A stretch of 44,111 nucleotides of DNA, taken from a virus. The position numbers and the translations under genes are program-made. Each line of letters starts with the position of its first letter. The first letter of the stretch is position 1. Positions 4,358-44,111 of this stretch are shown in pieces. The stretch is taken from the IMG/VR virus record IMGVR_UViG_3300028892_001354. The stretch is one strand, 5' to 3'. A model generated the notes under the pieces. The model made no database searches. It was not told the origin of the DNA and saw only the letters and a program-made list of their open reading frames with translations.

Positions 4358-4930
4358 ATGGTATTCGGTTATGCCAGAGTTTCAACAAAAAAGCAAAGTT
4401 TAGATATGCAATTAGACGAATTAAATCGTTACGGATGCGAGGAAATAGTAACAGAAAAAGAAAGTGGCGCTAAGAAGAATAGGAAAGAACTACAGCTGCT
4501 TCTTGGTAAACTTCGTAAAGGCGATAAATTAGTTGTTTATAAGTTAGATCGATTAGGTAGAACTATGCACCAACTTGCTAACTTATTACAAGAATTTAAC
4601 GAAAAAGGCATTAACTTTGTATCTATTAAAGATGGTATTGATACATCTACTACAATGGGACAATTTCTATTTCATATATTTGGGGCAGTGGCTGAAATGG
4701 AACGTTCTATTATTAATGAACGTGTAGTTAGTGGTGTAGCTGCTGCAAAGCAAAGAGGTAAGCAAGGTGGACGTAAAAAAGCACATACTGTTCAGCAAAT
4801 TGAGAGTATGATGGAAGCTGTAGAAATGGGTAGAACAAAGATAGAAATTTGCGAGATATATAATGTATCAAGAGCAACTTTGTACCGTTACATAAAGGAA
4901 CATGAAGCAAATAAGAAAGAATTAAAGTAG
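4358..4930 (+). CDS. Small serine recombinase (resolvase/invertase family)
   Basis: N-terminal MVFGYARVSTKKQSLDMQ catalytic-serine motif, DRLGR, and a C-terminal HTH (VSRATLYRYIKE). 190 aa. Confidence 0.9.
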   Translation: MVFGYARVSTKKQSLDMQLDELNRYGCEEIVTEKESGAKKNRKELQLLLGKLRKGDKLVVYKLDRLGRTMHQLANLLQEFNEKGINFVSIKDGIDTSTTMGQFLFHIFGAVAEMERSIINERVVSGVAAAKQRGKQGGRKKAHTVQQIESMMEAVEMGRTKIEICEIYNVSRATLYRYIKEHEANKKELK

Positions 4931-7087: not shown

Positions 7088-9354
7088 TTCATATAGGTGT
7101 GCGAGATTGGTTCTCTAGAAAATCAAAGAAAAAAGATACATTACGAGCAAATGTTTCTGCAGCTGTTCGTTCTTCTTTTAAAGGACTGCAAGGCGGTAAA
7201 CAATCGCAGAATAAATGGGAACGTCAATTTATGTGGTATGACGGACCGATAAAACGGTCTGAATATCGTACAAAAGATATTATGGAAAGTCTTCGTATGA
7301 TACGTGATATTGACCCAGATGCAAGTATGGCAATATGGAACTTTATTCGATTGGGTAATAGTGGCCATGAATTGGAATGTTTAAAACCAACTGGTAAACC
7401 CGATAAACAAGCGCAAGAAATTCTTAATGATATTGCCAAGCGAGTGGGAAAAATGTATGGAGGCGGTACTGATCAATTGATAGGCGTATTATTCCTTACT
7501 GCCATTACTCAAGGAGCAATTGCTTTAGAGGTGGAATTAACAGAAGGCATAGATGGCGTAGTTGATTTTCATGCAATAGATCCTTCTACATTGGACTTCC
7601 AATTCAATAAAGAGGAGAAGGAACTAGAACTGGTACAGAAGCAGGATAATGGAGAATACAAAGTACTCAATCAAGAACAAGTATTCTATTTCCCACTTGA
7701 TCCAGATGTAAATGATCCATACGGACGTTCTCCTATACTGCCTATACTGCAAATCATCTTCTTCCAAGTGCAAGTATTAAGCGACTTACAGAAGGTTGTA
7801 CACCATCAAGGGCATGCGCGTTTTGATATTTCAGTAGTAGAAGAAGCAATTATGAAGAATATACCACCTCATATACAAGGTGACGCTGCTGCAGTACAAC
7901 AATATGTTTCAAATTATATAAATGAAGTCCAAAAGATGATGAGCGAATTAGAACCAGATGATGATTTCTTTCATACTGATAGCGTTACGGTGGAAATGAC
8001 AGGTGGTATACAAGGAAAATCAATGGACATTACAAAAGTTATTGATGTAATTAACCAACGGGTAACCACTGCATTGAAGCAATTGCCGATTTTATTAGGT
8101 AGAAATGAGGGTACTACGGAAACACATGGTACGATTCAGTGGCAAATCTATGTAGCAGGTATAGAAAACATGCAACGTGGTATTAAACGTTTATTAGAAC
8201 GTGCATATAATGTCGCTCTGCAAGTACATGGTAAACAATCCAAGGCAAGGCTTACTTTTAATTCTATTCGTGTAAATGACCGCGAAAAAGAAGCAAATGC
8301 TGAAAACATTGAAACGATGACCAAACAAGCGCAAGTTATGGCAGGATGGATTGATAACAATGAAGCAGCGCAGCATATGGTTGGCCATGATGCAGTAGCA
8401 GAACCGCAAATGCTCTCTGCTCCACCTACAGTTGAAAGAAGTAAGCGCAGGCAGATGAAAAAGGAAAGTAAAATGCGTGCTGATACTGAGGAAGATGAGT
8501 ATGTAAAAGAAATAGATTTACCCTGGTCTTCTGAGATTGCAAAGATCACAACAAAAGCTCGTGATGAAATGCATGATTTATTAAAAAAGCAGTTAGAAAG
8601 ATATATTAATAAGTTAGAAGAAGCGCCAGAAGTTCCTACTCGTATGATGATAGAAATACATCGTATGCCAAAAGAAGAACGTATTTTAGAACCGATTAAA
8701 GCTTTTATTGATTGGGTTCGTAAACATATTCTTGGTGATTCTACTCAAGAAGTAGAAGAATGGAACGAATTAGCATATAAGTGGTCTGAAAAAGCTGGAA
8801 TAGTAGCAGGAGAAGAAAACTTATTCGAGATAGATCCAGAAATCAATTTTGATTATACAGATGAGAATCTACTCCGATGGCTTGCAAATCGTGCGTATAG
8901 TAGCGCAGAACTTATACAAGGTACAACAGATGAATCGGTTATTATGACTCTTTGGGATGTAGCAGCAGAGGGAGATTATACAATACAGAAGTTTTCAGAT
9001 GCACTACAAGATTCTTTTGAATTCAGTCATACAAGAGCAACTACCATTGCACGTACAGAAGTAATAAATGCTTCTCGTTCAGGACAGTTTCATTCAGATG
9101 AACAAAGTGGAATGGTAATTGGTAAGGAATGGCGTTCTGCTCGACAACCAGATAGAACTCGTCCTGGTCATTATGATGCGGATGGGCAAATACAACCATT
9201 TGATAAACCTTTTGAGGTAAATAATGCCCAAGGGAGTGCAGAACAATTAATGTTTCCCGGTGATCATTCACATGGCGCTACTGCAAGCAATTTGATTTGT
9301 TGCCGTTGTTGGTATAAACGCATTCTGCAGGGTGAGGAGGATAAATTAAAATGA
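7084..9354 (+). CDS. Portal protein fused to a MuF/SPP1-gp7-like head morphogenesis domain
   Basis: 756 aa, directly after TerL (GTGA overlap). The C-terminal third carries the MuF-like motif RATTIARTEVINASRSG...GKEWRSARQPDRTRPGH...NLICCRC. Confidence 0.8.
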   Translation: MIHIGVRDWFSRKSKKKDTLRANVSAAVRSSFKGLQGGKQSQNKWERQFMWYDGPIKRSEYRTKDIMESLRMIRDIDPDASMAIWNFIRLGNSGHELECLKPTGKPDKQAQEILNDIAKRVGKMYGGGTDQLIGVLFLTAITQGAIALEVELTEGIDGVVDFHAIDPSTLDFQFNKEEKELELVQKQDNGEYKVLNQEQVFYFPLDPDVNDPYGRSPILPILQIIFFQVQVLSDLQKVVHHQGHARFDISVVEEAIMKNIPPHIQGDAAAVQQYVSNYINEVQKMMSELEPDDDFFHTDSVTVEMTGGIQGKSMDITKVIDVINQRVTTALKQLPILLGRNEGTTETHGTIQWQIYVAGIENMQRGIKRLLERAYNVALQVHGKQSKARLTFNSIRVNDREKEANAENIETMTKQAQVMAGWIDNNEAAQHMVGHDAVAEPQMLSAPPTVERSKRRQMKKESKMRADTEEDEYVKEIDLPWSSEIAKITTKARDEMHDLLKKQLERYINKLEEAPEVPTRMMIEIHRMPKEERILEPIKAFIDWVRKHILGDSTQEVEEWNELAYKWSEKAGIVAGEENLFEIDPEINFDYTDENLLRWLANRAYSSAELIQGTTDESVIMTLWDVAAEGDYTIQKFSDALQDSFEFSHTRATTIARTEVINASRSGQFHSDEQSGMVIGKEWRSARQPDRTRPGHYDADGQIQPFDKPFEVNNAQGSAEQLMFPGDHSHGATASNLICCRCWYKRILQGEEDKLK

Positions 9355-30537: not shown

Positions 30538-31644
30538 CTAATTAAGGCTTAATTCCTTCTGTTTGGCGATAACCAGTAATAACTTATAGTAAGCTTTAGC
30601 AATACTCCAAATGCTTTCTTCTGTATCTAAGAAGTGCATCTCGAATTGATTTTCATTTTTGTTGATATCTTCTAAAAATGATTTAACAATTGCTGCTGAA
30701 CCACCAACATTATGAATACTGTGTAAATCTCCAACTTCTTTCCATTTATCCACTAAATCAGCGTATTCTCTTACGGCAAATTCTTTTAAATGTTTCTCTG
30801 CAATTTCATAATAAGAAACTGGTTTACCATGCGGCCTAATAATATAAGCTTCATGTTTTGCAGTCATATTTTCAACAAGTTGCCTTCTTGATTTAAATAC
30901 ATCTACACGATAAGTAGTAAATACTTCTTTACGAATTGCATCTAAATACTCACCTATGCCTAAAGGGGAACCACTAGAATATTCGTTGTCAATTTGCCCC
31001 ATACGAATTACTGCTTTGTCAGTAGTGTTACCACCCATATCATTAATTAAGATGTTCTTTTGTCTTAACTCCGAATTTTGAGGCTTTAAATCTTCGCTGA
31101 TTGTTAAATTAATCATTGCTGCGAATCCTTCAACGTTTACAAAGATATCTTTAAACGAGATACGTACTTTTTTTCCTTCTAAATGAGGTGTTTTCTTAAA
31201 TTCAACAACATGAGTACCATCTAAAAGTTTTTTCTTAAACCCAGCGCGTTTTTCTTCTTTAACTTCGTCAACTGGAAGACCAGTAGATAGTAAGAATTCT
31301 GCATCAATTATATTTTTATCACTATTAGAAGCTGCTTCATAAGCTAATGCAGTTAACATTAAGATAGTTGTTTGGTCTGATTCGCTTTTTAAATCAGTAG
31401 CAGGAATTTGAGCGCTTTGTTTTTCCTTAGCAGCAAGAGTACCTACTGCATATGTTGCTGATTTTTTTAATGCTGAGGATGTGATATGTACATGCAATTC
31501 CTTTAATGGATCGTCACCTAATTCGATCACTTGTCTAGATTCCATTTCTTTAACCACGTTAGGAATGTATAATTTGTTTTCAAATCCATTAAACAAAGCT
31601 TTTAAAGCATCGTTTCCGGCATCAATAGCGGCTGTTATTAACAT
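30538..31644 (-). CDS. Actin-like plasmid segregation ATPase (ParM/Alp family)
   Basis: Phosphate-1 IDAGNDALK, phosphate-2 NDMGGNTTD, adenosine motif NVGGSAAIV. The ATG at 31644 is better spaced from the RBS GGGAGAG than the ATG at 31650. Confidence 0.85.
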   Translation of the reverse strand: MLITAAIDAGNDALKALFNGFENKLYIPNVVKEMESRQVIELGDDPLKELHVHITSSALKKSATYAVGTLAAKEKQSAQIPATDLKSESDQTTILMLTALAYEAASNSDKNIIDAEFLLSTGLPVDEVKEEKRAGFKKKLLDGTHVVEFKKTPHLEGKKVRISFKDIFVNVEGFAAMINLTISEDLKPQNSELRQKNILINDMGGNTTDKAVIRMGQIDNEYSSGSPLGIGEYLDAIRKEVFTTYRVDVFKSRRQLVENMTAKHEAYIIRPHGKPVSYYEIAEKHLKEFAVREYADLVDKWKEVGDLHSIHNVGGSAAIVKSFLEDINKNENQFEMHFLDTEESIWSIAKAYYKLLLVIAKQKELSLN

Positions 31645-31681
31645 TTTCATCTCTCCCTTTATTAATCAATATACCTAAATA

Positions 31682-32079: not shown

Positions 32080-32733
32080 CTATTGTTCATTTGCATAACC
32101 TAATTCAAATGAATAATATTTTTCTAAGGACGCTGCAGCCCCTACATAAGTTAAAATCAAAGGAACTTCTTCTAACGATTGGTAATTAATAGTTTTTAAA
32201 TTTGTCTTTTTTCTCTCTAATTGTATAGTCTTTATATTTACACCTAGTTGTTCATGTAAATGCTCGTTAATACGACGTAATATAGGTTCAGATCCATAAA
32301 TTCTTAATCGTGCTGAGAAATATGGGCCACGTCTACCTTTAGTCTTCTTTCTATTCAAATCATGACGATATCCAATATACGCTTTTATAAAAGCAGAATC
32401 ATTAAATTCTCCTCGAGGGTACTCACGCTCATAACGAGAACCAGATTCCCATCCCATTTTTATTATCTCTTGTATAAATGGATGTTTTAATCCCACGGAG
32501 CAATACCATTCTGATGAATTCCGCTCCTTTTCTTCACTAGTACGAACTACACTATTAATCAATGTTGAAAATTCATATACAAGTTCATAAGAGTTATCTT
32601 GAAAAATAAAACTCCCAGAGCTTTCATGTCCATTTCTCCATACGAATGCTAACGCCTTTGCAAATTCATCTGACTTCCTAAATTCATTGAACCACTTTTG
32701 TTCTGACGTTTGTACAACTAACGATTTACGCAT
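32080..32733 (-). CDS. Hypothetical protein, possibly a degenerate LAGLIDADG-like fold
   Basis: Two pseudo-repeats (ALAFVWRNGHESSGSFIF and FIKAYIGYRHDL...ARLRIYGSEPILRRINEHL) resemble LAGLIDADG helices and strands but lack clear acidic catalytic residues. Confidence 0.3.
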   Translation of the reverse strand: MRKSLVVQTSEQKWFNEFRKSDEFAKALAFVWRNGHESSGSFIFQDNSYELVYEFSTLINSVVRTSEEKERNSSEWYCSVGLKHPFIQEIIKMGWESGSRYEREYPRGEFNDSAFIKAYIGYRHDLNRKKTKGRRGPYFSARLRIYGSEPILRRINEHLHEQLGVNIKTIQLERKKTNLKTINYQSLEEVPLILTYVGAAASLEKYYSFELGYANEQ

Positions 32734-32771: not shown

Positions 32772-33914
32772 TTATTGTTCTAACCAGTTATAGAATAAAA
32801 GAGTACCTTCAAATTTTGTTTTATTTTCATGAATAAATGATTTTGCCAATTCAACAGTGTTTTCTCTTTCGATAACCATTGTAAGTCGTCCGGCGTAATA
32901 TATAGCAGGAACTTGAATAGGATCTGATGTTTGACTACGTTCATGTATATCTTGTAAGAATTCACTAATTGACTTGTCCACTTGATTCATAGTTCCAATA
33001 CGTACATCTTTGTTTTGCAATGTCTTTAATACATCAAGAAATTCGCTTCGTTTTGTAAATACATTTTTTTCTTTTAATCTTTCAACAACAGATTGATAGA
33101 ATAAATGAGACATTTGATTTATATATTCTTCTTCCTCGTCATTTTCTAAATCTAGAGCATCCACTATATTATGTAATTTATCTAATTTAGAAGAAGAGGA
33201 ATAATTACTCTTTGCTGTATTCTGTGTGGGAGTCTCTGTGGAATTCTCTGTTAAAGATTTAACGGATTCGTTAGAGCTAATTCCCGATTCAGTGATAGCA
33301 TTTTCACTATTTGGTATTTCCGTTTTAACGGATTCGTTAAAACCATTGTTTTCAATACTTTCTGGTGTAATTTCGTTTTCACCATTTGGTAAAAACGATG
33401 AGCCTAAAGGGTTTGCAGGTAATAATGGTTCTTGGAATGAATATTGCTGCTGATCCTGATTTTTTTTATTTTCTTCTGCTTGTTTTTCTTTTTCTTTTTG
33501 TAATTGACGTTCATATTCTTCGCGAACTTTTTTGTTTAAAAGTTTTAAAAATACATCTGTATGTAAGTGTATATGGACCATAGGGTCACCATTAAACTTA
33601 TACACTTTTTTAGTTATGATTTTTTGGTCTACTAAAATCTTGCTAGCACGATCAAACTGACGAGGGCCAATTCGAATTTCATCCCACCAATCTGTACGAC
33701 CTTTAGCCAACCATAATTTTTTATCTTTCCAGATACGTAGCTTTGTAATGTTAGTGTCTTTAGATGGCAGATGCCAATAAACAATTTGGGATAGTAATAA
33801 ACCTGCGACAACATCTTCATCAGCCACGTCTACATATACTTTTTTGAAATCAATAGTATCGGTTGTTGCACGTTCCCACATTAAAAATTCTTGAAAGTTA
33901 TTAAATCCGTTCAT
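32772..33914 (-). CDS. Putative replication initiator (Rep) with a low-complexity central linker
   Basis: Adjacent to an AT-rich region with DnaA boxes and upstream of the par operon. N-terminal domain VAGLLLSQIVYWHLP...WWDEIRIGPRQFDRASKIL looks like a winged-helix replication-organizer. RBS GGAGGA precedes the ATG at 33914. Confidence 0.55.
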   Translation of the reverse strand: MNGFNNFQEFLMWERATTDTIDFKKVYVDVADEDVVAGLLLSQIVYWHLPSKDTNITKLRIWKDKKLWLAKGRTDWWDEIRIGPRQFDRASKILVDQKIITKKVYKFNGDPMVHIHLHTDVFLKLLNKKVREEYERQLQKEKEKQAEENKKNQDQQQYSFQEPLLPANPLGSSFLPNGENEITPESIENNGFNESVKTEIPNSENAITESGISSNESVKSLTENSTETPTQNTAKSNYSSSSKLDKLHNIVDALDLENDEEEEYINQMSHLFYQSVVERLKEKNVFTKRSEFLDVLKTLQNKDVRIGTMNQVDKSISEFLQDIHERSQTSDPIQVPAIYYAGRLTMVIERENTVELAKSFIHENKTKFEGTLLFYNWLEQ

Positions 33915-34146
33915 AAAAAAATCCTCCAATTTTTTACCCCGACTAAAAAATGGGTATAAGAAATTAGAGGATTGTTATTCATATTTTTTTATGCTATCAT
34001 ATTAATAGAAATAGCACTTTTGAATATGTGATAACAAACCTCGTGTTCCAATTTTCATCGGTTGTAGTAGGCGGCCAAACTTACAGAACCTTTGAAAATT
34101 TCGTCGGGGTTTTTTTATTTTTATAATTTATATGAAAAATTTACAT

Positions 34147-34380: not shown

Positions 34381-34725
34381 TCACAGTATTTCGTGGTTCT
34401 CACCTAAGAATCGTACATAATGGTCAAGCTGTTTACAAAAGTTCTCTTTTTGGATTTCAGAAAGCGCTGCATACGTTTTTTGAACACCAAATAGAGTATT
34501 ATGTAGCATTTCATCATCTGTAGCGTCAGTTCGCCCAGTAAGCACATCTAATGTTACGTTGAAATAGGAGGCGAGACGAAACAACGTCGCAAGATCTGGC
34601 TCAGAAAAACTATTTTCATAATTGTTGATTTGGCTTCTGCTGAGATTAAGGTCGTGTGCTAAATCCGCTTGTCTTAACGAACGACTTTTTCTAAGTTTTT
34701 TTAAAGTATCACCTAAAGTTTTCAT
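34381..34725 (-). CDS. XRE-family HTH repressor (114 aa)
   Basis: LRQADLAHDLNLSRSQINNYENS HTH. The ATG at 34725 (MKTLGDT) is preferred over the longer track ORF. Divergent from aimR. Confidence 0.8.
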   Translation of the reverse strand: MKTLGDTLKKLRKSRSLRQADLAHDLNLSRSQINNYENSFSEPDLATLFRLASYFNVTLDVLTGRTDATDDEMLHNTLFGVQKTYAALSEIQKENFCKQLDHYVRFLGENHEIL

Positions 34726-34754
34726 ACTATTAGTATAGTTACTGTAATATCTAT

Positions 34755-34791
34755 ATACTATAAATGATAGGTATATTGTCATTTATAGTAT
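34755..34791. promoter_or_regulatory. 13-bp-arm inverted repeat, candidate operator upstream of the XRE repressor
   Basis: ATACTATAAATGA-N11-TCATTTATAGTAT. Confidence 0.45.
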
Positions 34792-35234
34792 AATGATTTA
34801 TTATTAATCTTTTTTTGGAAATAAATATAAGAACTTATGTTCTAATTTTGTTTAATTGGTGGTAATATATGCATATAAGATCTTGAAATACGCAAATAAA
34901 TGATTGTATATTTTTATCCGTGAAACACAAGAAACGTTGATATGTAAAGGTTTCTCAACTTTCTCAACTATTATCTGATAATCGTAGGACTGAATATTGG
35001 GAAATTTGTGGTATCATGAGGGTAACTAAAAACGGACGCAAAGAAAAGACCCACGGTATAAATGGTGTTGATCGCACCATTTATACTGCCTCCCTAGTCA
35101 TGGTAGGGAAACATTGTCGCGAGTCTTGTACACACTTATTATAACACAACTTAGAGTTTAAGTGACGCGTTTTCCTTTATATGTAAGAAGTTGCGGAGTT
35201 GACGTGTCTTTTTGTCCAAAGGAGGACAAATTTC

Positions 35235-36443
35235 ATGGAAGTTGTATTGGATTTGAAAGACATGAAGCAAAAATTGGAATCGAACGGTTACACAAATCGT
35301 AAATTAGCAACGCGTTTCAAAGTGACTCATACAACGGTAAATAGTTATTTTAACAAACAAGGAAAATTTGATTTTATGCATTTTGTTGACTCTTTAAGAT
35401 TATATGAACCTAAGGATGTTAAATTTAGAAGAGAATGCATTAAAGAAATAATTCCTACATTATCACATAGAAATTTAAAATTAGCCCTTGAAGTATTGGA
35501 TATGTTTGGTGAATATGATCTGCAAGAATTAGTAATTGAAAGGATAATGAATTCAAACGAGAAAAAAGATGAAAAAAAGAAAGGTAATTCATTAACTGTA
35601 CGGACAAATATAAGGCTTGCTAAATTTTATCAACTTCTGAGAAAAAGAAGTGAAGGTAATATTACAGCAAATGATTTCTTTGAAGAAGTGGATAAGAAAA
35701 GAAAATCACAAAAGAATACAGAAAATGACTTAATGATTGTCTCTGATTTTAGTGCGATGTATTCTTACTTAGATTTCAGTAACTACACAAAAGTTAACGA
35801 GTATATTCAAAGTGTGTTGCCACGAATCGAGCAGGTTAGTAAGCATACAAATCAAAATTCATTTTCACTTCGAATTAAAGAAATGCAAATTTCTATCAAA
35901 ATGCATAGTGAAGGTAATATTAATGGAGCTAGAGATATTTGTTTAGAAATATTAAATGATCCATACAATTATTATATAAGCACAAAAGCAATCGCTTATT
36001 GTAAACTAGGTGAAAGCTATGCATTAACCGATTACGAAAAAGCTAAAGATTATATTTATACTGCACTTGAGATTCTGGGTAATCCAACAAATAAAAAATT
36101 GAAAATTAGAAAAGAAAGAATACTTAATGTGCTATTATTTCTAAAGATTTATCATGGGAAAGACCTAGATACAATTGATCGAACGAAACTTGATTTAGCG
36201 GAACTTGCATTCTTTTATATTAAAACAGGTAAGAAGGGTGAAGCCTTAGAGATACTACGTGGTCTTAAACGACAGAATGGTTATCTAAGTAGTTTTCAAT
36301 TGTATTACATGGGGATTGCAATTGGAGGCGCTGAAGGTAAAAAATATTTAGAAATGTCCATAGAAAGTTTTTCTAAAACAGGCGATAATTTCTATATTTC
36401 ACTACCTATTAATGAATTGAAATGTTATAATAAGGTTATCTAA
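35235..36443 (+). CDS. aimR: AimR-like arbitrium peptide receptor (HTH plus TPR, RRNPP family)
   Basis: N-terminal HTH (NRKLATRFKVTHTTVNSYF) and a long helical repeat body. The C-terminus SIESFSKTGDNFYISLPINELKCYN resembles, as I recall it, the phi3T AimR C-terminus SIEYFKKSNDKFLIRLPLLELQKMG. Followed by a short secreted-peptide gene. Confidence 0.8.
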   Translation: MEVVLDLKDMKQKLESNGYTNRKLATRFKVTHTTVNSYFNKQGKFDFMHFVDSLRLYEPKDVKFRRECIKEIIPTLSHRNLKLALEVLDMFGEYDLQELVIERIMNSNEKKDEKKKGNSLTVRTNIRLAKFYQLLRKRSEGNITANDFFEEVDKKRKSQKNTENDLMIVSDFSAMYSYLDFSNYTKVNEYIQSVLPRIEQVSKHTNQNSFSLRIKEMQISIKMHSEGNINGARDICLEILNDPYNYYISTKAIAYCKLGESYALTDYEKAKDYIYTALEILGNPTNKKLKIRKERILNVLLFLKIYHGKDLDTIDRTKLDLAELAFFYIKTGKKGEALEILRGLKRQNGYLSSFQLYYMGIAIGGAEGKKYLEMSIESFSKTGDNFYISLPINELKCYNKVI

Positions 36444-36462
36444 GCAAGGGGTGGTGGAATGT

Positions 36463-36603
36463 TTGAAGTCTAAGTTATTTAAAGTTATTTTAACAATTGC
36501 GGCAGCTGCAACTTTTACATTTGCACCAGCTACAAAGCAGGAGAAAGTTAAAAATGTAGACGCGCCAGTAATGTATATGGACCCAAATCCGGGTGGCGGT
36601 TGA
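36463..36603 (+). CDS. aimP: AimP-like signalling pre-pro-peptide (46 aa)
   Basis: Not in the ORF track (<60 aa, TTG start). RBS AAGGGGTGGTGG lies 6 nt upstream. MKSKLFKVILTIAAAATFTFAPA is a signal peptide. C-terminus ...VMYMDPNPGGG. Starts 20 nt after the aimR stop. Confidence 0.7.
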   Translation: MKSKLFKVILTIAAAATFTFAPATKQEKVKNVDAPVMYMDPNPGGG

Positions 36604-36623
36604 TTTTTATAAATAATAATATT

Positions 36624-36659
36624 AGAAATGACACTATCAAATTTGATAGTGTCATTTCT
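36624..36659. promoter_or_regulatory. 36-bp perfect palindrome; candidate AimR operator and/or aimP terminator
   Basis: AGAAATGACACTATCAAA|TTTGATAGTGTCATTTCT, with no mismatch. Confidence 0.6.
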
Positions 36660-36767
36660 GCTTTATAGAGAATGGAAACTTTTTTGATGAAACAATATAA
36701 AAAACGACAAAAACTTTCCATCTTAGATGATGTACATAAAATAAAGAGGATGTAGGGGGAATTAATA

Positions 36768-36929
36768 ATGAATGTAGCAGTAGCTCAGGATAAAAATACT
36801 TTAGAGAAAAATGACTTATCTACTAATCTATGGGAATTATTAAAGAAAGGAGAAACGGATGGAGGAGCTAGGAATCATATCGATGCAATTAAGGAGTCAC
36901 TTAAAAGAAGAAAAAAAAATGATTGTTAG
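36768..36929 (+). CDS. 53-aa ORF in the aimX-equivalent position
   Basis: RBS GTAGGGGGA precedes the ATG at 36768. Followed by the hairpin GATTGTTAGC-GCTCAT-GCTAACAATC, shared with the convergent repressor gene. Confidence 0.45.
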   Translation: MNVAVAQDKNTLEKNDLSTNLWELLKKGETDGGARNHIDAIKESLKRRKKNDC

Positions 36930-36948
36930 CGCTCATGCTAACAATCAT

Positions 36949-37287
36949 TTACTTACTATCTGGGCTTAATCCAGCCTTTATCCATTTTAAATACATTTCT
37001 TGTTCTGCTTCTGGCATATTTTGCAACATCTCATAAATTTCATCAAATTCTTGTTTTAGTTTAGAATGCTGTACCCTATTTAATTGTGGATCGTCTGAAA
37101 ATCCAAGTAAATAGTCAGATGTACACCCTAAAACTTCTGCAAATACGGAAACGGACCGCTCGCTTCGATCTCGTTTATTATTTTCTATTAATGATATAGT
37201 GGCCTTTTTTAAACCTACGGCTTCTCCAAGTTCATCTTGGTTCCAACCTTTTAATTTCCTCAGTTGTTTTACCCTATCTCCACGCAT
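36949..37287 (-). CDS. CI-like XRE-family repressor (112 aa)
   Basis: WNQDELGEAVGLKKATISLIENNKR HTH with a C-terminal helical tail. Divergent from the cro-like gene, with an operator-rich intergenic region between them. Confidence 0.85.
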   Translation of the reverse strand: MRGDRVKQLRKLKGWNQDELGEAVGLKKATISLIENNKRDRSERSVSVFAEVLGCTSDYLLGFSDDPQLNRVQHSKLKQEFDEIYEMLQNMPEAEQEMYLKWIKAGLSPDSK

Positions 37288-37329
37288 AAATTATCCACTC
37301 TTTTCTATAAAATGATTTCACTTATAGTC

Positions 37330-37373
37330 AGTTAAGTTATATTCAGTTAACTTAAGTTAATGTTAGTTAAGTT
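37330..37373. promoter_or_regulatory. Operator family 1: AGTTAAGTT x3, including the 14-bp palindrome TTAACTTAAGTTAA
   Basis: Sites at 37330-37338, 37347-37360 and 37365-37373, proximal to the cI-like gene. Confidence 0.6.
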
Positions 37374-37402: not shown

Positions 37403-37499
37403 AAGTTTGATAGAATCAAACTTTTGTAATAGTTAGAACCAGCTGCAAATGACGAAAAAAGAAAAAAATTTAAATAAAAAGTTTACATTTTGCAAACTT
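37403..37499. promoter_or_regulatory. Operator family 2 (AAGTTT-N9-AAACTT): sites O1 (37403-37423) and O2 (37479-37499)
   Basis: O1 lies within an 18-bp-arm perfect palindrome (37394-37432). O2 overlaps the candidate promoter TTTACA-17-TAAAAT (37482-37510) of the cro-like gene. Confidence 0.6.
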
Positions 37500-37544
37500 C
37501 TTGATAAAATTCAAAGTGTAAAGTATAAGCGAGGTGAAATTAAA

Positions 37545-37748
37545 ATGAAATTTGACAGCGAGAAAGTGTCAACTTTGCTTAGAAAGAGGAAAATGAAACA
37601 AATAGACCTAGCATCCGCTATAGATCGTGCACCTTCGACTGTTTCATTGTATTTAAGTGGGAAAAGTGAACCAGGAAGAAAGGCCCTGATTGCAATGTCA
37701 GAAGTTCTAGATACTCCAATAAGTGATTTTTTGAAATCAGATAATTAA
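37545..37748 (+). CDS. Cro-like XRE-family HTH protein (67 aa)
   Basis: MKQIDLASAIDRAPSTVSLYLSGKSEP HTH. RBS GAGGTGAAA precedes the ATG at 37545. Confidence 0.8.
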   Translation: MKFDSEKVSTLLRKRKMKQIDLASAIDRAPSTVSLYLSGKSEPGRKALIAMSEVLDTPISDFLKSDN

Positions 37749-37797: not shown

Positions 37798-37864
37798 AAG
37801 TTTGCAAAATGAAAACTTAAATAAATTACAAAATGAAATTTAAAAGTTTGCGAAAAATAAACTT
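37798..37864. promoter_or_regulatory. Operator family 2: sites O3 (37798-37818) and O4 (37844-37864), upstream of the antirepressor gene
   Basis: Both are AAGTTT-N9-AAACTT. O4 ends 13 nt before the ATG at 37878. Confidence 0.55.
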
Positions 37865-37877
37865 AGGAGGGTTTGCG

Positions 37878-38552
37878 ATGAGTCAACTACAAGCAATACA
37901 GCATCCAGTTAGTCACTTGGTATTCGTAGAAGGAAATGAACTTGTTACTGATAGTTTAAAGGTTGCACAGGTTTTCGATAAACGTCATGCAGATGTGCTA
38001 AAAAGTATTGAATCCTTAAACTGTACCCAAGATTTTAGCGAACGAAATTTTTCGTCGGCTGAATATAAGGATACCCAACAGAAGTCGAGACCTAAATATT
38101 TACTTAAACGCGATGGTTTGATGTTTCTAGTTATGGGATATACGGGTGAAAAAGCAGCTCATATGAAAGAAAGTTACATAAATGAATTTAACCGTATGGA
38201 ACAACACATCAAACAAAGCATGCACCCGTTACAAATGATTAACATCATGACAACAGAAATGATGAGTCAGGGTGATCGCTTAGGGAAGTTAGAACATGCT
38301 GTACAAGAACGCATGACAGTCGATTATAGTCAACAATCAGCGCTTAGAAATGCAGTTAATCGCAGAATATGTAAGCTCTGGGATGCAGGGACATATAATG
38401 TCGCAGTACACGATAGTAAAAATAAACTATTTGCAGCGATTTGGAAAGATGTTAAAAATTCATTTGCTGTAAATAGTTATCGCAACATTCGCCAAAGGGA
38501 ATTTGATGAGGCGATTAGCTACATTAAAGCATGGCGTCCAAGATTAGTTTAA
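37878..38552 (+). CDS. Rha-family phage regulatory protein / antirepressor
   Basis: VFVEGNELVTDSLKVAQVFDKRHADVLKSI...RPKYLLKRDGLMFLVMGYTGEKAAHMKESYINEFNRME matches the Phage_pRha signature. Confidence 0.85.
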   Translation: MSQLQAIQHPVSHLVFVEGNELVTDSLKVAQVFDKRHADVLKSIESLNCTQDFSERNFSSAEYKDTQQKSRPKYLLKRDGLMFLVMGYTGEKAAHMKESYINEFNRMEQHIKQSMHPLQMINIMTTEMMSQGDRLGKLEHAVQERMTVDYSQQSALRNAVNRRICKLWDAGTYNVAVHDSKNKLFAAIWKDVKNSFAVNSYRNIRQREFDEAISYIKAWRPRLV

Positions 38553-43865: not shown

Positions 43866-44096
43866 ATGGAACGGATGAGACATACAAGAAATAGACAAAT
43901 GACAAAAATAGGTGAAGAAAATTTTATGGGAATGAAGAATATCAAAATTTCAACGATACGAAAGTTTGATGGAGAGTTTAATAATAGATTAGATCCAACT
44001 TTCCGGTGGCACAGAGATTATCATGGTATGAATATTGTATCTTTTAACCGTAAGGGTGAAGCATTTAAAACTAATGTGATAAAAGTTAGAAATTAA
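43866..44096 (+). CDS. Hypothetical 76-aa basic protein in an isolated transcription unit spanning the circular junction
   Basis: RBS GGAGGGGA precedes the ATG at 43866. Its 3' part is duplicated at 1..129. Flanked by hairpins on both sides. Confidence 0.55.
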   Translation: MERMRHTRNRQMTKIGEENFMGMKNIKISTIRKFDGEFNNRLDPTFRWHRDYHGMNIVSFNRKGEAFKTNVIKVRN

Positions 44097-44111
44097 ACAA
44101 AATCGTTATTT
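43968..44111. repeat. Terminal direct repeat, copy 2
   Basis: Identical to 1..144. Confidence 0.95.

Follow-up and report, generated by a model that had tools for sequence, protein, structure and literature searches.

A probable extended arbitrium lysis-lysogeny module on a circular phage-plasmid of the Bacillus cereus group

What kind of switch lies between positions 35235 and 36929 of the virus record IMGVR_UViG_3300028892_001354, and how would it work in a phage that lives as an episome? The record, called here the window (the whole stretch of 44,111 nucleotides that was analysed), was originally predicted from its letters alone to carry an arbitrium cassette on an episomal temperate phage. 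The cassette was said to comprise a receptor gene aimR, a pre-peptide gene aimP and a small open reading frame (ORF) downstream of them. Profile hidden Markov models (HMMs), the predicted fold of the receptor, the conservation of the peptide, synteny and the literature all bear out this central reading. The region is very probably a complete extended arbitrium lysis-lysogeny module of a B. cereus-group phage-plasmid, working in the manner proposed below. It combines a receptor of the AimR family, a conserved AimP, a hairpin, an operator-like repeat and a coding aimX coupled to the type of the repressor AimC, on an episomal genome. The extended arbitrium system makes up ~75% of roughly 9,300 AimR loci (Kabel et al., bioRxiv 10.1101/2025.11.23.689978). 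Its parts are aimR, aimP, aimX (29-80 aa), a convergent aimC (80-140 aa, no cleavage domain) and a divergent cro-like aimL (Kabel et al.). The window has the convergent aimC, the divergent aimL and the same-strand aimX of this definition. The coordinates of all features are collected in Table 1.

The product of the first gene is an AimR family receptor, as judged from its sequence and its modelled fold. It had been described as an AimR-like protein with an N-terminal helix-turn-helix (HTH) and a helical-repeat body, and family HMMs and fold search agree with that description. NCBIfam NF038310 (lysogeny_AimR), the equivalog model by which the Prokaryotic Genome Annotation Pipeline (PGAP) names AimR proteins, matches the 402-aa ORF at E=6.5e-113 and with 377 bits against a cutoff of 70. 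Pfam PF22871 (AimR) matches at E=1.5e-40, and the same ORF has no Pfam or NCBIfam match to the Rap, NprR, PlcR, Rgg or PrgX families. The AlphaFold2 model has a predicted local distance difference test (pLDDT) score of 83 and a predicted template modelling (pTM) score of 0.79. In a fold search of the PDB, its best 16 matches are all AimR crystals (SPbeta, phi3T, Katmira33, ATCC13952), with template modelling (TM) scores of 0.60-0.76 when normalised to the query and 0.66-0.80 when normalised to the target. The structural alignments with these crystals show 19-21% identity. After them the E-value falls by ~10^4, and generic tetratricopeptide repeat (TPR) proteins follow at E ~1e-2. Other receptors of the RRNPP group, Rap (6t46) and NprR (5dbk), are matched only at E ~1e-2 with TM 0.37-0.41. 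The HMM search and the structure prediction proposed for positions 35235 to 36443 thus matched the AimR families and retrieved the AimR fold. The C-terminus had also been likened to that of phi3T AimR. A single-sequence phmmer search of the window AimR against PDB sequences finds no AimR at E<1, whereas a profile of 19 homologues reaches phi3T AimR (5zvw) at E=7e-16 over residues 132-397, and the likeness is seen in this alignment, which takes in the C-terminal motif S-I-x-x-F-x-K-x-x-D-x-[FY]-[YF]-I-x-L-P. The name 'AimR family lysis-lysogeny pheromone receptor' has already been given to more than 100 homologues that are 58-80% identical, almost all of which come from the B. cereus group.

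The pre-peptide gene directly follows. A TTG-initiated 46-aa ORF with a strong ribosome-binding site and a DPNPGGG end had been proposed as aimP, and both its coordinates and its conservation agree with the proposal. The translation reads MKSKLFKVILTIAAAATFTFAPA, the signal part, and then TKQEKVKNVDAPVMYMDPNPGGG. By inspection, MKSKLFKVILTIAAAATFTFAPA has a lysine-rich n-region, a hydrophobic core and an A-P-A cleavage motif, from which we infer a signal peptide. This cleavage call parallels the predicted cut after residue 23 in the 46-aa AimP of phage B83 (Piligrimova et al. 2019, PMC6669507). The product matches phrog_2682, a phage family of unassigned function, at E=1.4e-9. In 10 database homologues (65-98% identity) and in the relatives, residues D40 to G46 (DPNPGGG) are invariant and the pro-region is variable. 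Against plasmid pJ10_2 of B. cereus, the ratio of nonsynonymous to synonymous changes (pN/pS) in aimP is 0.11. Since the seven-residue block is invariant, its conservation suggests that the mature peptide is the 7-mer DPNPGGG. The active peptide reported for Waukesha92-like phages is a 10-mer, MMSEPGGGGW, and the counterpart in the window would, by analogy, be MYMDPNPGGG. Alternative starts at TTG-35199 for aimR and at the in-frame GTG 36451 for aimP were rejected on Shine-Dalgarno spacing, promoter position and the annotated relatives.

The peptide and the receptor vary together. In a comparative set of ~55 related loci, which was taken from a scan of viral contigs (a scan of genome contigs yielded 4 loci), the C-terminus of the peptide sorts with the AimR subgroup. 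The ending DPNPGGG accompanies AimR proteins at least 72% identical to that of the window, DPGPGGG those at 58-63%, DPGAGGG those at ~47%, and DPGGTGG (phages IEBH and 250) those at ~46%. More distant endings in the B. cereus group are EPGGGGW (Waukesha92), DPGGSVG (B83) and DPGGGGW (RBClin15). Judged from these sequences, a glycine-rich ending after D/E-P is the rule for B. cereus-group arbitrium and no oddity, and the earlier view of the GGG ending as unusual has to be given up. A full-text literature search for PNPGGG, NPGGG, DPNPGG and PGPGGG returned no arbitrium paper; the peptide tables of Erez 2017 and Stokar-Avihail 2019 lay outside that search.

Between aimP and aimX there are two repeats, and both had been noticed in the original prediction. 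The 36-bp perfect palindrome is confirmed at 36624-36659, and the imperfect 13-bp inverted repeat at 36672-36721 is present as described, with arms at 36672-36684 and 36709-36721 that are 92% complementary and 24 nt apart. Both repeats are kept, together with aimP and the small ORF, in the ~55 related loci. The palindrome is more likely the terminator of aimP. The spacer folds with z = -4.9 against shuffles, and the palindrome is its dominant hairpin. It occupies the same position as the phi3T/SPbeta terminator (TT), and the sequence directly 3' of it is CATTTCTGCTTTAT. Among 22 distinct relatives, 94% of the cells of the stem alignment are paired and 6 of the 16 pairs are changed on both sides (ACTATC/GATAGT to AGTGTC/GACACT, C-G to G-C, A-T to G-C, for example), a covariation score that none of 500 shuffles reaches.

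The second repeat holds the boxes TGGAAA-N36-TTTCCA, which are likelier than the palindrome to form the AimR operator, a putative assignment that draws on the following regularities. In the loci inspected, which represent every peptide subgroup, the hexamer boxes stand constantly 13 nt from the hairpin. Their spacer is N24 in every measured DPGPGGG, DPGAGGG and DPGGTGG locus, and N36 (N35 in L012) in each of the nine DPNPGGG loci, among them the window, in which the element is present. The extra 12 bp, roughly one turn of the helix, are inserted in the AT-rich centre of the spacer. Phased A/T tracts in this longer spacer might bend the DNA, although this is speculation. The HTH region of AimR (residues 18-39) is almost invariant across the peptide subgroups, which is consistent with the invariant boxes. 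In phi3T and SPbeta, a terminator after aimP is followed by the AimR site, which has two 6-bp inverted boxes with a 25-bp spacer (Gallego del Sol 2019; Zamora-Caballero 2024). AimR acts there as an antiterminator of the aimP transcript, and a changed distance between terminator and site abolishes its function (same studies). A strictly conserved distance such as the 13 nt found here is what an antitermination mechanism predicts.

AimR could also be a classical activator or repressor of a promoter dedicated to aimX. A possible sigma-A-like element, TTTCCA-16-TAAAAT at 36715-36742, uses the right operator box as its -35, and by eye the DPNPGGG loci and most of the DPGPGGG loci have a -10-like hexamer 15-17 nt past TTTCCA. 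The LexA site that phi106 has between its terminator and aimX implies a promoter in that place (Kabel et al.). The match in the window is just 9/12, and its standing as a promoter is uncertain; by eye, such a hexamer is absent from the 0105phi7-2-like loci, the IEBH group and the DPGAGGG group. Moreover, phi3T and SPbeta have no promoter downstream of the AimR site, the distance from terminator to site is critical in them, and that distance is strictly 13 nt here. Control of a dedicated promoter is unlikely on these grounds, yet credible enough to be kept in view. Antitermination by AimR at the hairpin is the mechanism adopted here. One related locus has neither element: in the chromosome of Bacillus toyonensis GXUN31-2 (L007), AimR is 79% identical to that of the window and aimP has the same DPNPGGG-coding end, the terminator and the operator are missing, and an IEBH-type aimX ORF (MENLVVELLLMEKTEG...) stands directly after the aimP stop. 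Recombination may have produced this locus, or it may be a variant with constitutive read-through.

What would transcription past the hairpin deliver? The 53-aa ORF is present downstream of aimP at 36768-36929, as the original prediction had it. The aimR-aimP-aimX layout of the cassette likewise stands, with the difference that this aimX is not of the phi3T/SPbeta kind. By analogy with characterised relatives, its product is most likely an AimX antirepressor of AimC. The gene with which the cassette had been said to converge, a cI-like repressor gene, is the 112-aa XRE gene at 36949-37287 on the minus strand, here aimC. Its product has HTH_3 (E=2e-11) as its sole Pfam domain, with weak matches to the DicA and RstR repressor subfamilies and, in the Pfam scan, no match to peptidase S24 (autocleavage). 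In length and convergent orientation it falls within the aimC definition of Kabel et al. (80-140 aa). AimC represses P_aimL and AimX relieves this repression in phi106, Wbeta, BMBtp14 and Waukesha92, and overexpression of AimX raises the titre of a Waukesha92-like phage-plasmid 100-fold (Kabel et al.).

The aimX ORF of the window has the properties expected of such a partner. Its match in PHROG is phrog_12565 (E=3.6e-8), its homologues are 66-91% identical, and a small ORF is found at its position in all but two of the related loci. Its pN/pS of 0.31-0.45, against 0.09-0.14 for aimC, indicates a coding but fast-evolving gene, and AimX is described as fast-evolving by Kabel et al. as well. The type of aimX follows the type of AimC and is independent of the AimR/AimP type. 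For example, a DPGPGGG-type AimR is combined in L038 with an AimX/AimC pair like that of the window, the DPNPGGG-type AimR proteins of L011 and L012 are accompanied by other AimX/AimC pairs, and L039 has a Waukesha92-like AimC with a Waukesha92-like AimX. Such modular co-inheritance is predicted by a direct interaction between AimX and AimC.

The output could also be an RNA. An AimR-dependent transcript running through aimX would silence the convergent aimC as an antisense RNA, and the 53-aa ORF would be incidental. This is reportedly the original model of Stokar-Avihail from 2019. The arrangement in the window allows it: aimX and aimC are convergent with 19 nt between their stops, and the hairpin that overlaps the end of aimX has a T-run on the minus strand only, so that it should stop the aimC transcript and not the aimX transcript. 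The aimX transcript could therefore run on antisense to aimC, and RNA-seq in related phages shows transcripts that extend over the repressor gene (summarised by Kabel et al.). In phi106, however, a recoded aimX still worked and a start-to-stop mutant lost all response, and AimX supplied in trans relieved AimC repression in three B. cereus-group phages (Kabel et al.). The same authors judge the earlier antisense idea to be probably not consequential. The ORF in the window is under purifying selection and co-varies with AimC. Antisense silencing as the output is thus improbable, and a protein antirepressor AimX is retained.

The remaining alternatives concern the first repeat and the target of AimX. 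In the original prediction the palindrome itself was the AimR binding site. It is perfect, its sequence is strongly conserved beyond the pairing across AimR subgroups of 46-100% identity, and symmetric substitutions would preserve a dimer site as well as a stem. The centre of the palindrome speaks against this assignment. The loop length varies by ~3 nt in the alignment, and the gap between the arms ranges from 0 to 5 nt and reaches ~7-8 nt in L012 and L014, an inconstancy that a dimeric HTH protein would not tolerate and that fits the loop of an RNA hairpin. The place is that of the phi3T/SPbeta terminator, a U-rich tract follows, and a better operator lies nearby: known operators consist of 6-bp boxes with a ~25-bp spacer, and the TGGAAA/TTTCCA repeat gives N24 in the sister groups. 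Binding of AimR to the palindrome is decidedly improbable, and the terminator reading is preferred for it. It is highly improbable that AimX acts as a phi3T-type MazE-like antitoxin on host MazF or as an SPbeta-type regulatory RNA rather than on the phage repressor, since, for all the shared gene name and position and an AimX divergence too great to exclude functions by sequence, those roles are tied to SPbeta-like clade 2 phages with the sro/yop operon (~4% of systems; Kabel et al.), the window has the aimC and aimL neighbours that define the extended type, and its AimR is just ~20% identical to clade-2 receptors.

Several points weigh against the module working as proposed. The AimR of the window is ~25% identical to Waukesha92 AimR and ~20% to SPbeta/phi3T AimR, and no similarity is detectable between its AimX and those AimX proteins that have been tested, so that the role of AimX rests on position and co-variation. 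The cleavage of the signal peptide is judged by eye. The U-tract of the hairpin is interrupted and its stem is AT-rich. In vitro, SPbeta AimR binds spacers of 23-28 bp equally and longer ones progressively more weakly up to 35 bp, the longest tried; the 36-bp spacer exceeds the 25 bp of SPbeta and lies at the edge of this tolerance, which makes the binding geometry uncertain. Finally, since the right operator box is shared with the promoter-like element, the target of AimR might be a promoter and not the terminator.

AimC would exert its effect on the genes that diverge from it. Four copies of the palindrome AAGTTT-N9-AAACTT are present in the window, where 0.01 would be expected. One pair overlaps the predicted promoters of aimC and aimL, and the other stands at the beginning of the Rha-family gene. 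Only loci with the same AimC type have three or four copies at matching relative places, and binding of AimC between aimC and aimL has been shown in relatives. The four palindromes are good candidates for AimC operators, and the position of the second pair suggests that AimC also controls the rha gene directly. The aimL gene is the first gene of the early lytic operon and is followed by the Rha-family gene and further genes on the same strand. A 99-aa reading of aimL from 37449 was rejected; the promoter-like site 37482-37510 lies inside it, and the counterpart annotated in pJ10_2 has 67 aa.

Two further observations concern this half of the locus. The aimC leader, between its predicted promoter and its start, contains at 37317-37373 three tandem, partly overlapping copies of a ~22-nt repeat (TTAAGTTA...AGTTAAGTT). 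In addition, the aimR-aimP and aimX-aimC-aimL halves are shuffled between phages when L011, L012, L038 and L039 are compared with the window, and the conserved terminator-operator segment stands at the junction. The pattern suggests that this segment is a recombination joint between a signal and an immunity module.

A working model can be put together in which secretion and processing of the peptide, its binding, antitermination and the AimX-AimC interaction are carried over from relatives. The aimR and aimP genes would be co-transcribed. AimP would be exported by way of its signal peptide and trimmed outside the cell to its C-terminal 7-10 residues with a DPNPGGG core, and the peptide would be re-imported and bound by the TPR domain of AimR. 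At low peptide concentration, AimR on TGGAAA-N36-TTTCCA would allow transcription past the hairpin into aimX, and the most likely means is antitermination, the mechanism of phi3T and SPbeta. AimX would then bind AimC and keep it off the AAGTTT-N9-AAACTT operators. With AimC sequestered, aimL, rha and the early lytic genes would be switched on, leading to lysis. At high peptide concentration, AimR would leave the DNA, transcription would stop at the hairpin and no AimX would be made. Without AimX, AimC would repress the early genes and the genome would be kept as a partitioned plasmid prophage.

Table 1. Features of the arbitrium region and of its surroundings, in window coordinates
Feature	Coordinates	Strand	Details
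aimR	35235-36443	+	ATG start, AGGAGG 9 nt upstream, stop 36441-36443; 402 aa; N-terminal HTH and TPR-like helical body
aimP	36463-36603	+	TTG start 19 nt past aimR stop; 46 aa; GGGGTGG Shine-Dalgarno
Predicted aimP terminator hairpin (TT)	36624-36659	+	perfect 18+18-nt palindrome, then U-rich tract CAUUUCUGCUUUAU
Candidate AimR operator	36673-36720		TGGAAA-N36-TTTCCA; boxes 36673-36678 and 36715-36720, 13 nt past hairpin
Possible aimX promoter	36715-36742	+	sigma-A-like TTTCCA-16-TAAAAT; weak match
aimX candidate	36768-36929	+	53 aa; GGGGGA Shine-Dalgarno
Predicted aimC terminator hairpin	36917-36950	-	T-run on minus strand only; overlaps aimX 3' end; no plus-strand U-tract
aimC	36949-37287	-	112 aa; N-terminal HTH, helical C-terminal part; stop 19 nt from aimX stop
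Promoter-like site for aimC	37419-37391	-	
Promoter-like site for aimL	37482-37510	+	
Candidate AimC operators 1, 2	37403-37423, 37479-37499		AAGTTT-N9-AAACTT; overlap predicted aimC and aimL promoters
Candidate AimC operators 3, 4	37798-37818, 37844-37864		AAGTTT-N9-AAACTT; at start of Rha-family gene
aimL	37545-37748	+	67 aa, cro-like; HTH_3 E=9e-8; 96% identical to a 67-aa pJ10_2 protein
Rha-family gene	37833-38552		TIGR02681 E=1.6e-30
Upstream XRE repressor-like gene	34381-34782	-	Pfam HTH_3 E=5e-15; outside the five-gene module; syntenic in phage-plasmid relatives
LexA (Cheo)-like box	34830-34843		AGAACTTATGTTCT; XRE-aimR intergenic region; perfect GAAC-N4-GTTC core
ParM/Alp-like partition gene	30538-31650		
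Replication protein	32772-33929		in the place of pJ10_2 'replication initiator protein A'
Gene beside replication protein	32080-32733	-	in the place of a pJ10_2 hypothetical protein
Small serine recombinase	4358-4930		Resolvase N-terminal domain E=2.7e-46 and HTH_7; sole recombinase found

The genome that carries the module is a circular B. cereus-group phage-plasmid of ~44 kb. The window is a circular assembly with an exact 144-bp terminal direct repeat (1-144 = 43968-44111), which gives a genome of ~43,967 bp. It encodes capsid, tail, holin, lysin, RecU and a sigma factor together with the ParM-like gene. An identical AimR is encoded on a 44,051-bp JGI metagenome contig. The relatives of the window have been deposited both as plasmids and as phages, and the closest ones are plasmids with a PGAP-annotated AimR. 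The host had been described as a phage without integrase, with the cassette beside a plasmid origin. No tyrosine integrase or large serine recombinase is found among the window proteins, which leaves that part of the description in place; a small serine recombinase is present, more likely a plasmid multimer resolvase or an invertase than an integrase, and the origin was not located. A tblastn search with the integrase, RepA and ParM of pJ10_2 finds no counterpart in the window. Neither the replication protein nor the neighbouring minus-strand gene is matched by a Pfam or NCBIfam family or resembles pJ10_2 RepA in tblastn. The lack of a counterpart to this RepA indicates a replication protein of another type, and the replication module of this phage-plasmid appears to be of a different, uncharacterised kind. 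An Rfam scan of the whole window gives no match.

Upstream of aimR lies a minus-strand XRE repressor-like gene, whose true start is probably Met20 at 34725. Its product is 46% identical to the 'putative immunity repressor' of 0105phi7-2 and ~45% identical to the upstream XRE proteins of Waukesha92, IEBH and pJ10_2. Two further XRE repressors flanking the cassette had been reported as unusual. Both exist (34381-34782 on the minus strand and 37449-37748 on the plus strand), but they are typical of B. cereus-group arbitrium loci.

The intergenic region between this gene and aimR contains a LexA-like box. Perfect GAAC-N4-GTTC cores occur only twice in the 44 kb, against 0.39 expected. Of 61 related loci, 30 have such a core ~380-425 nt upstream of aimR (L001 at 4908-4919, L002 at 8870-8881, L004 at 2100-2111, L006 at 2026-2037, and 26 further loci), and Waukesha92, IEBH, pJ10_2 and 0105phi7-2 are among them. 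Where annotated, these are the loci with an upstream XRE gene. A search of the window for a LexA box placed as in phi106, between the terminator and aimX, found none. The box at 34830-34843 could serve as an SOS input. If so, the point at which DNA damage acts would be the upstream XRE gene or the aimR-aimP-aimX transcript, and not aimX. This would address how damage reaches extended arbitrium systems that have no LexA site upstream of aimX, a route left open by Kabel et al. The box is separated from the aimR start by ~390 nt of non-coding DNA; in 34850-35200 there are only short, unconvincing ORFs and no Rfam match, and the segment may form a long 5' leader or encode a small RNA that has escaped annotation.

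In terms of novelty, this type of module has been described before, receives automatic annotation and has been the subject of experiments in relatives, and the locus is an ordinary further member of it. An arbitrium cassette on an episomal phage beside a cI/cro-type switch had been considered unusual. Such a setting was published for B83 in 2019 and has been tested in a Waukesha92-like phage-plasmid. Thousands of members of the AimR family are already catalogued, NCBI has a model for naming them, crystal structures exist, and the mechanism for this exact gene arrangement has been published on a related phage-plasmid. One more AimR/AimP pair (DPNPGGG) is therefore of little general significance, and the N36 operator is a modest variant of the AimR operator type. 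What is new here is the 36-bp operator spacer (against 24 bp in the sister groups), the four candidate AimC operators and the conserved LexA-like box upstream of aimR. The N36 operator and the upstream LexA box are both undescribed in the arbitrium literature examined. A tentative proposal, which we hold to be rather doubtful, is that the DPNPGGG subgroup combines a natural N36 operator, with a different AimR dimer geometry or A-tract-bent DNA, with an SOS input through the LexA box at aimR-aimP-aimX or at the upstream XRE gene. The practical value of the locus is that of a clean annotated example with terminator, operator, aimX, aimC, four candidate AimC operators and aimL. This example could test the limit to which the AimR operator spacer can be stretched, antitermination outside SPbeta-like phages, and the SOS entry point in phage-plasmids.

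How does the module compare with known systems? The clade 2 systems of SPbeta and phi3T share with it the receptor fold, the position of aimP directly 3' of aimR, the order of terminator, operator and aimX, and 6-bp inverted boxes with a long AT-rich spacer. They differ in the receptor (~20% AimR identity), in the peptide (xxxxGA as opposed to DPNPGGG) and in the spacer (25 bp as opposed to 36 bp). The hexapeptide ending in GA, mostly xxxRGA, and the close receptor that mark SPbeta-like clade 2 are absent from the window. The effectors differ as well: AimX of the window would act on the AimC repressor, whereas SPbeta/phi3T AimX acts on MazF/phi3T_93 or as an RNA. The SPbeta-like host is a 130-kb integrated phage, in contrast to a 44-kb episome. 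At the level of the output, Kabel et al. draw a functional analogy to SinI/SinR of Bacillus subtilis, in which a small helical protein blocks the oligomerisation of an HTH repressor; no homology is shown.

Within the B. cereus group the likeness is closer. B83 (vB_BtS_B83) is a circular plasmid prophage with an arbitrium system among XRE/cI/cro-like genes and with a small downstream ORF that was proposed to be aimX-related (Piligrimova et al. 2019, PMC6669507). Its AimR is 25% identical to that of the window, and its peptide, of clade 7, ends in DPGGSVG. BVE2, phBC6A52 and 0105phi7-2 have AimR proteins at 60-63% identity, the peptide DPGPGGG and an N24 operator, and IEBH and 250 have AimR proteins at 46% and the peptide DPGGTGG. 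Several of these five are integrated prophages with an integrase beside aimR, and their AimX and AimC are of other types. The extended modules of Waukesha92-like phages, Wbeta, BMBtp14 and phi106 have the same gene order and orientations as that of the window. They also share with it an AimC that is small and has no cleavage domain, a small ORF separating aimP from aimC, a peptide of the D/E-P...GG type and an episomal phage as carrier. The order XRE(-), aimR, aimP, small ORF, XRE(-), XRE(+), Rha-family gene is common to the window, Waukesha92, pJ10_2, IEBH, 0105phi7-2 and BVE2. In Waukesha92 the gene order and orientations are identical to those of the window, including the upstream XRE and the downstream Rha-family gene. 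The sequences are further apart: AimR is 25% identical, AimC ~29% over the HTH only, and AimX has no detectable similarity. The Waukesha92 peptide is (MMS)EPGGGGW instead of DPNPGGG, and its repeat is TTCGAAGTT-N14-AACTTCGAA instead of TGGAAA-N36-TTTCCA. Annotation of these relatives is already in place; the pJ10_2 receptor carries the RefSeq name 'AimR family lysis-lysogeny pheromone receptor', and both AimR and the peptide are annotated in 0105phi7-2. The plasmid pJ10_2 (B. cereus, NZ_AP022948) shares with the window DPNPGGG, the hairpin and the N36 operator, with identities of 75% for AimR, 93% for AimP, 68% for AimX, 90% for AimC and 96% for AimL. In summary, the nearest sequenced relatives of the module are pJ10_2 and IMG/VR phage-plasmid contigs, and its nearest characterised relative is Waukesha92.

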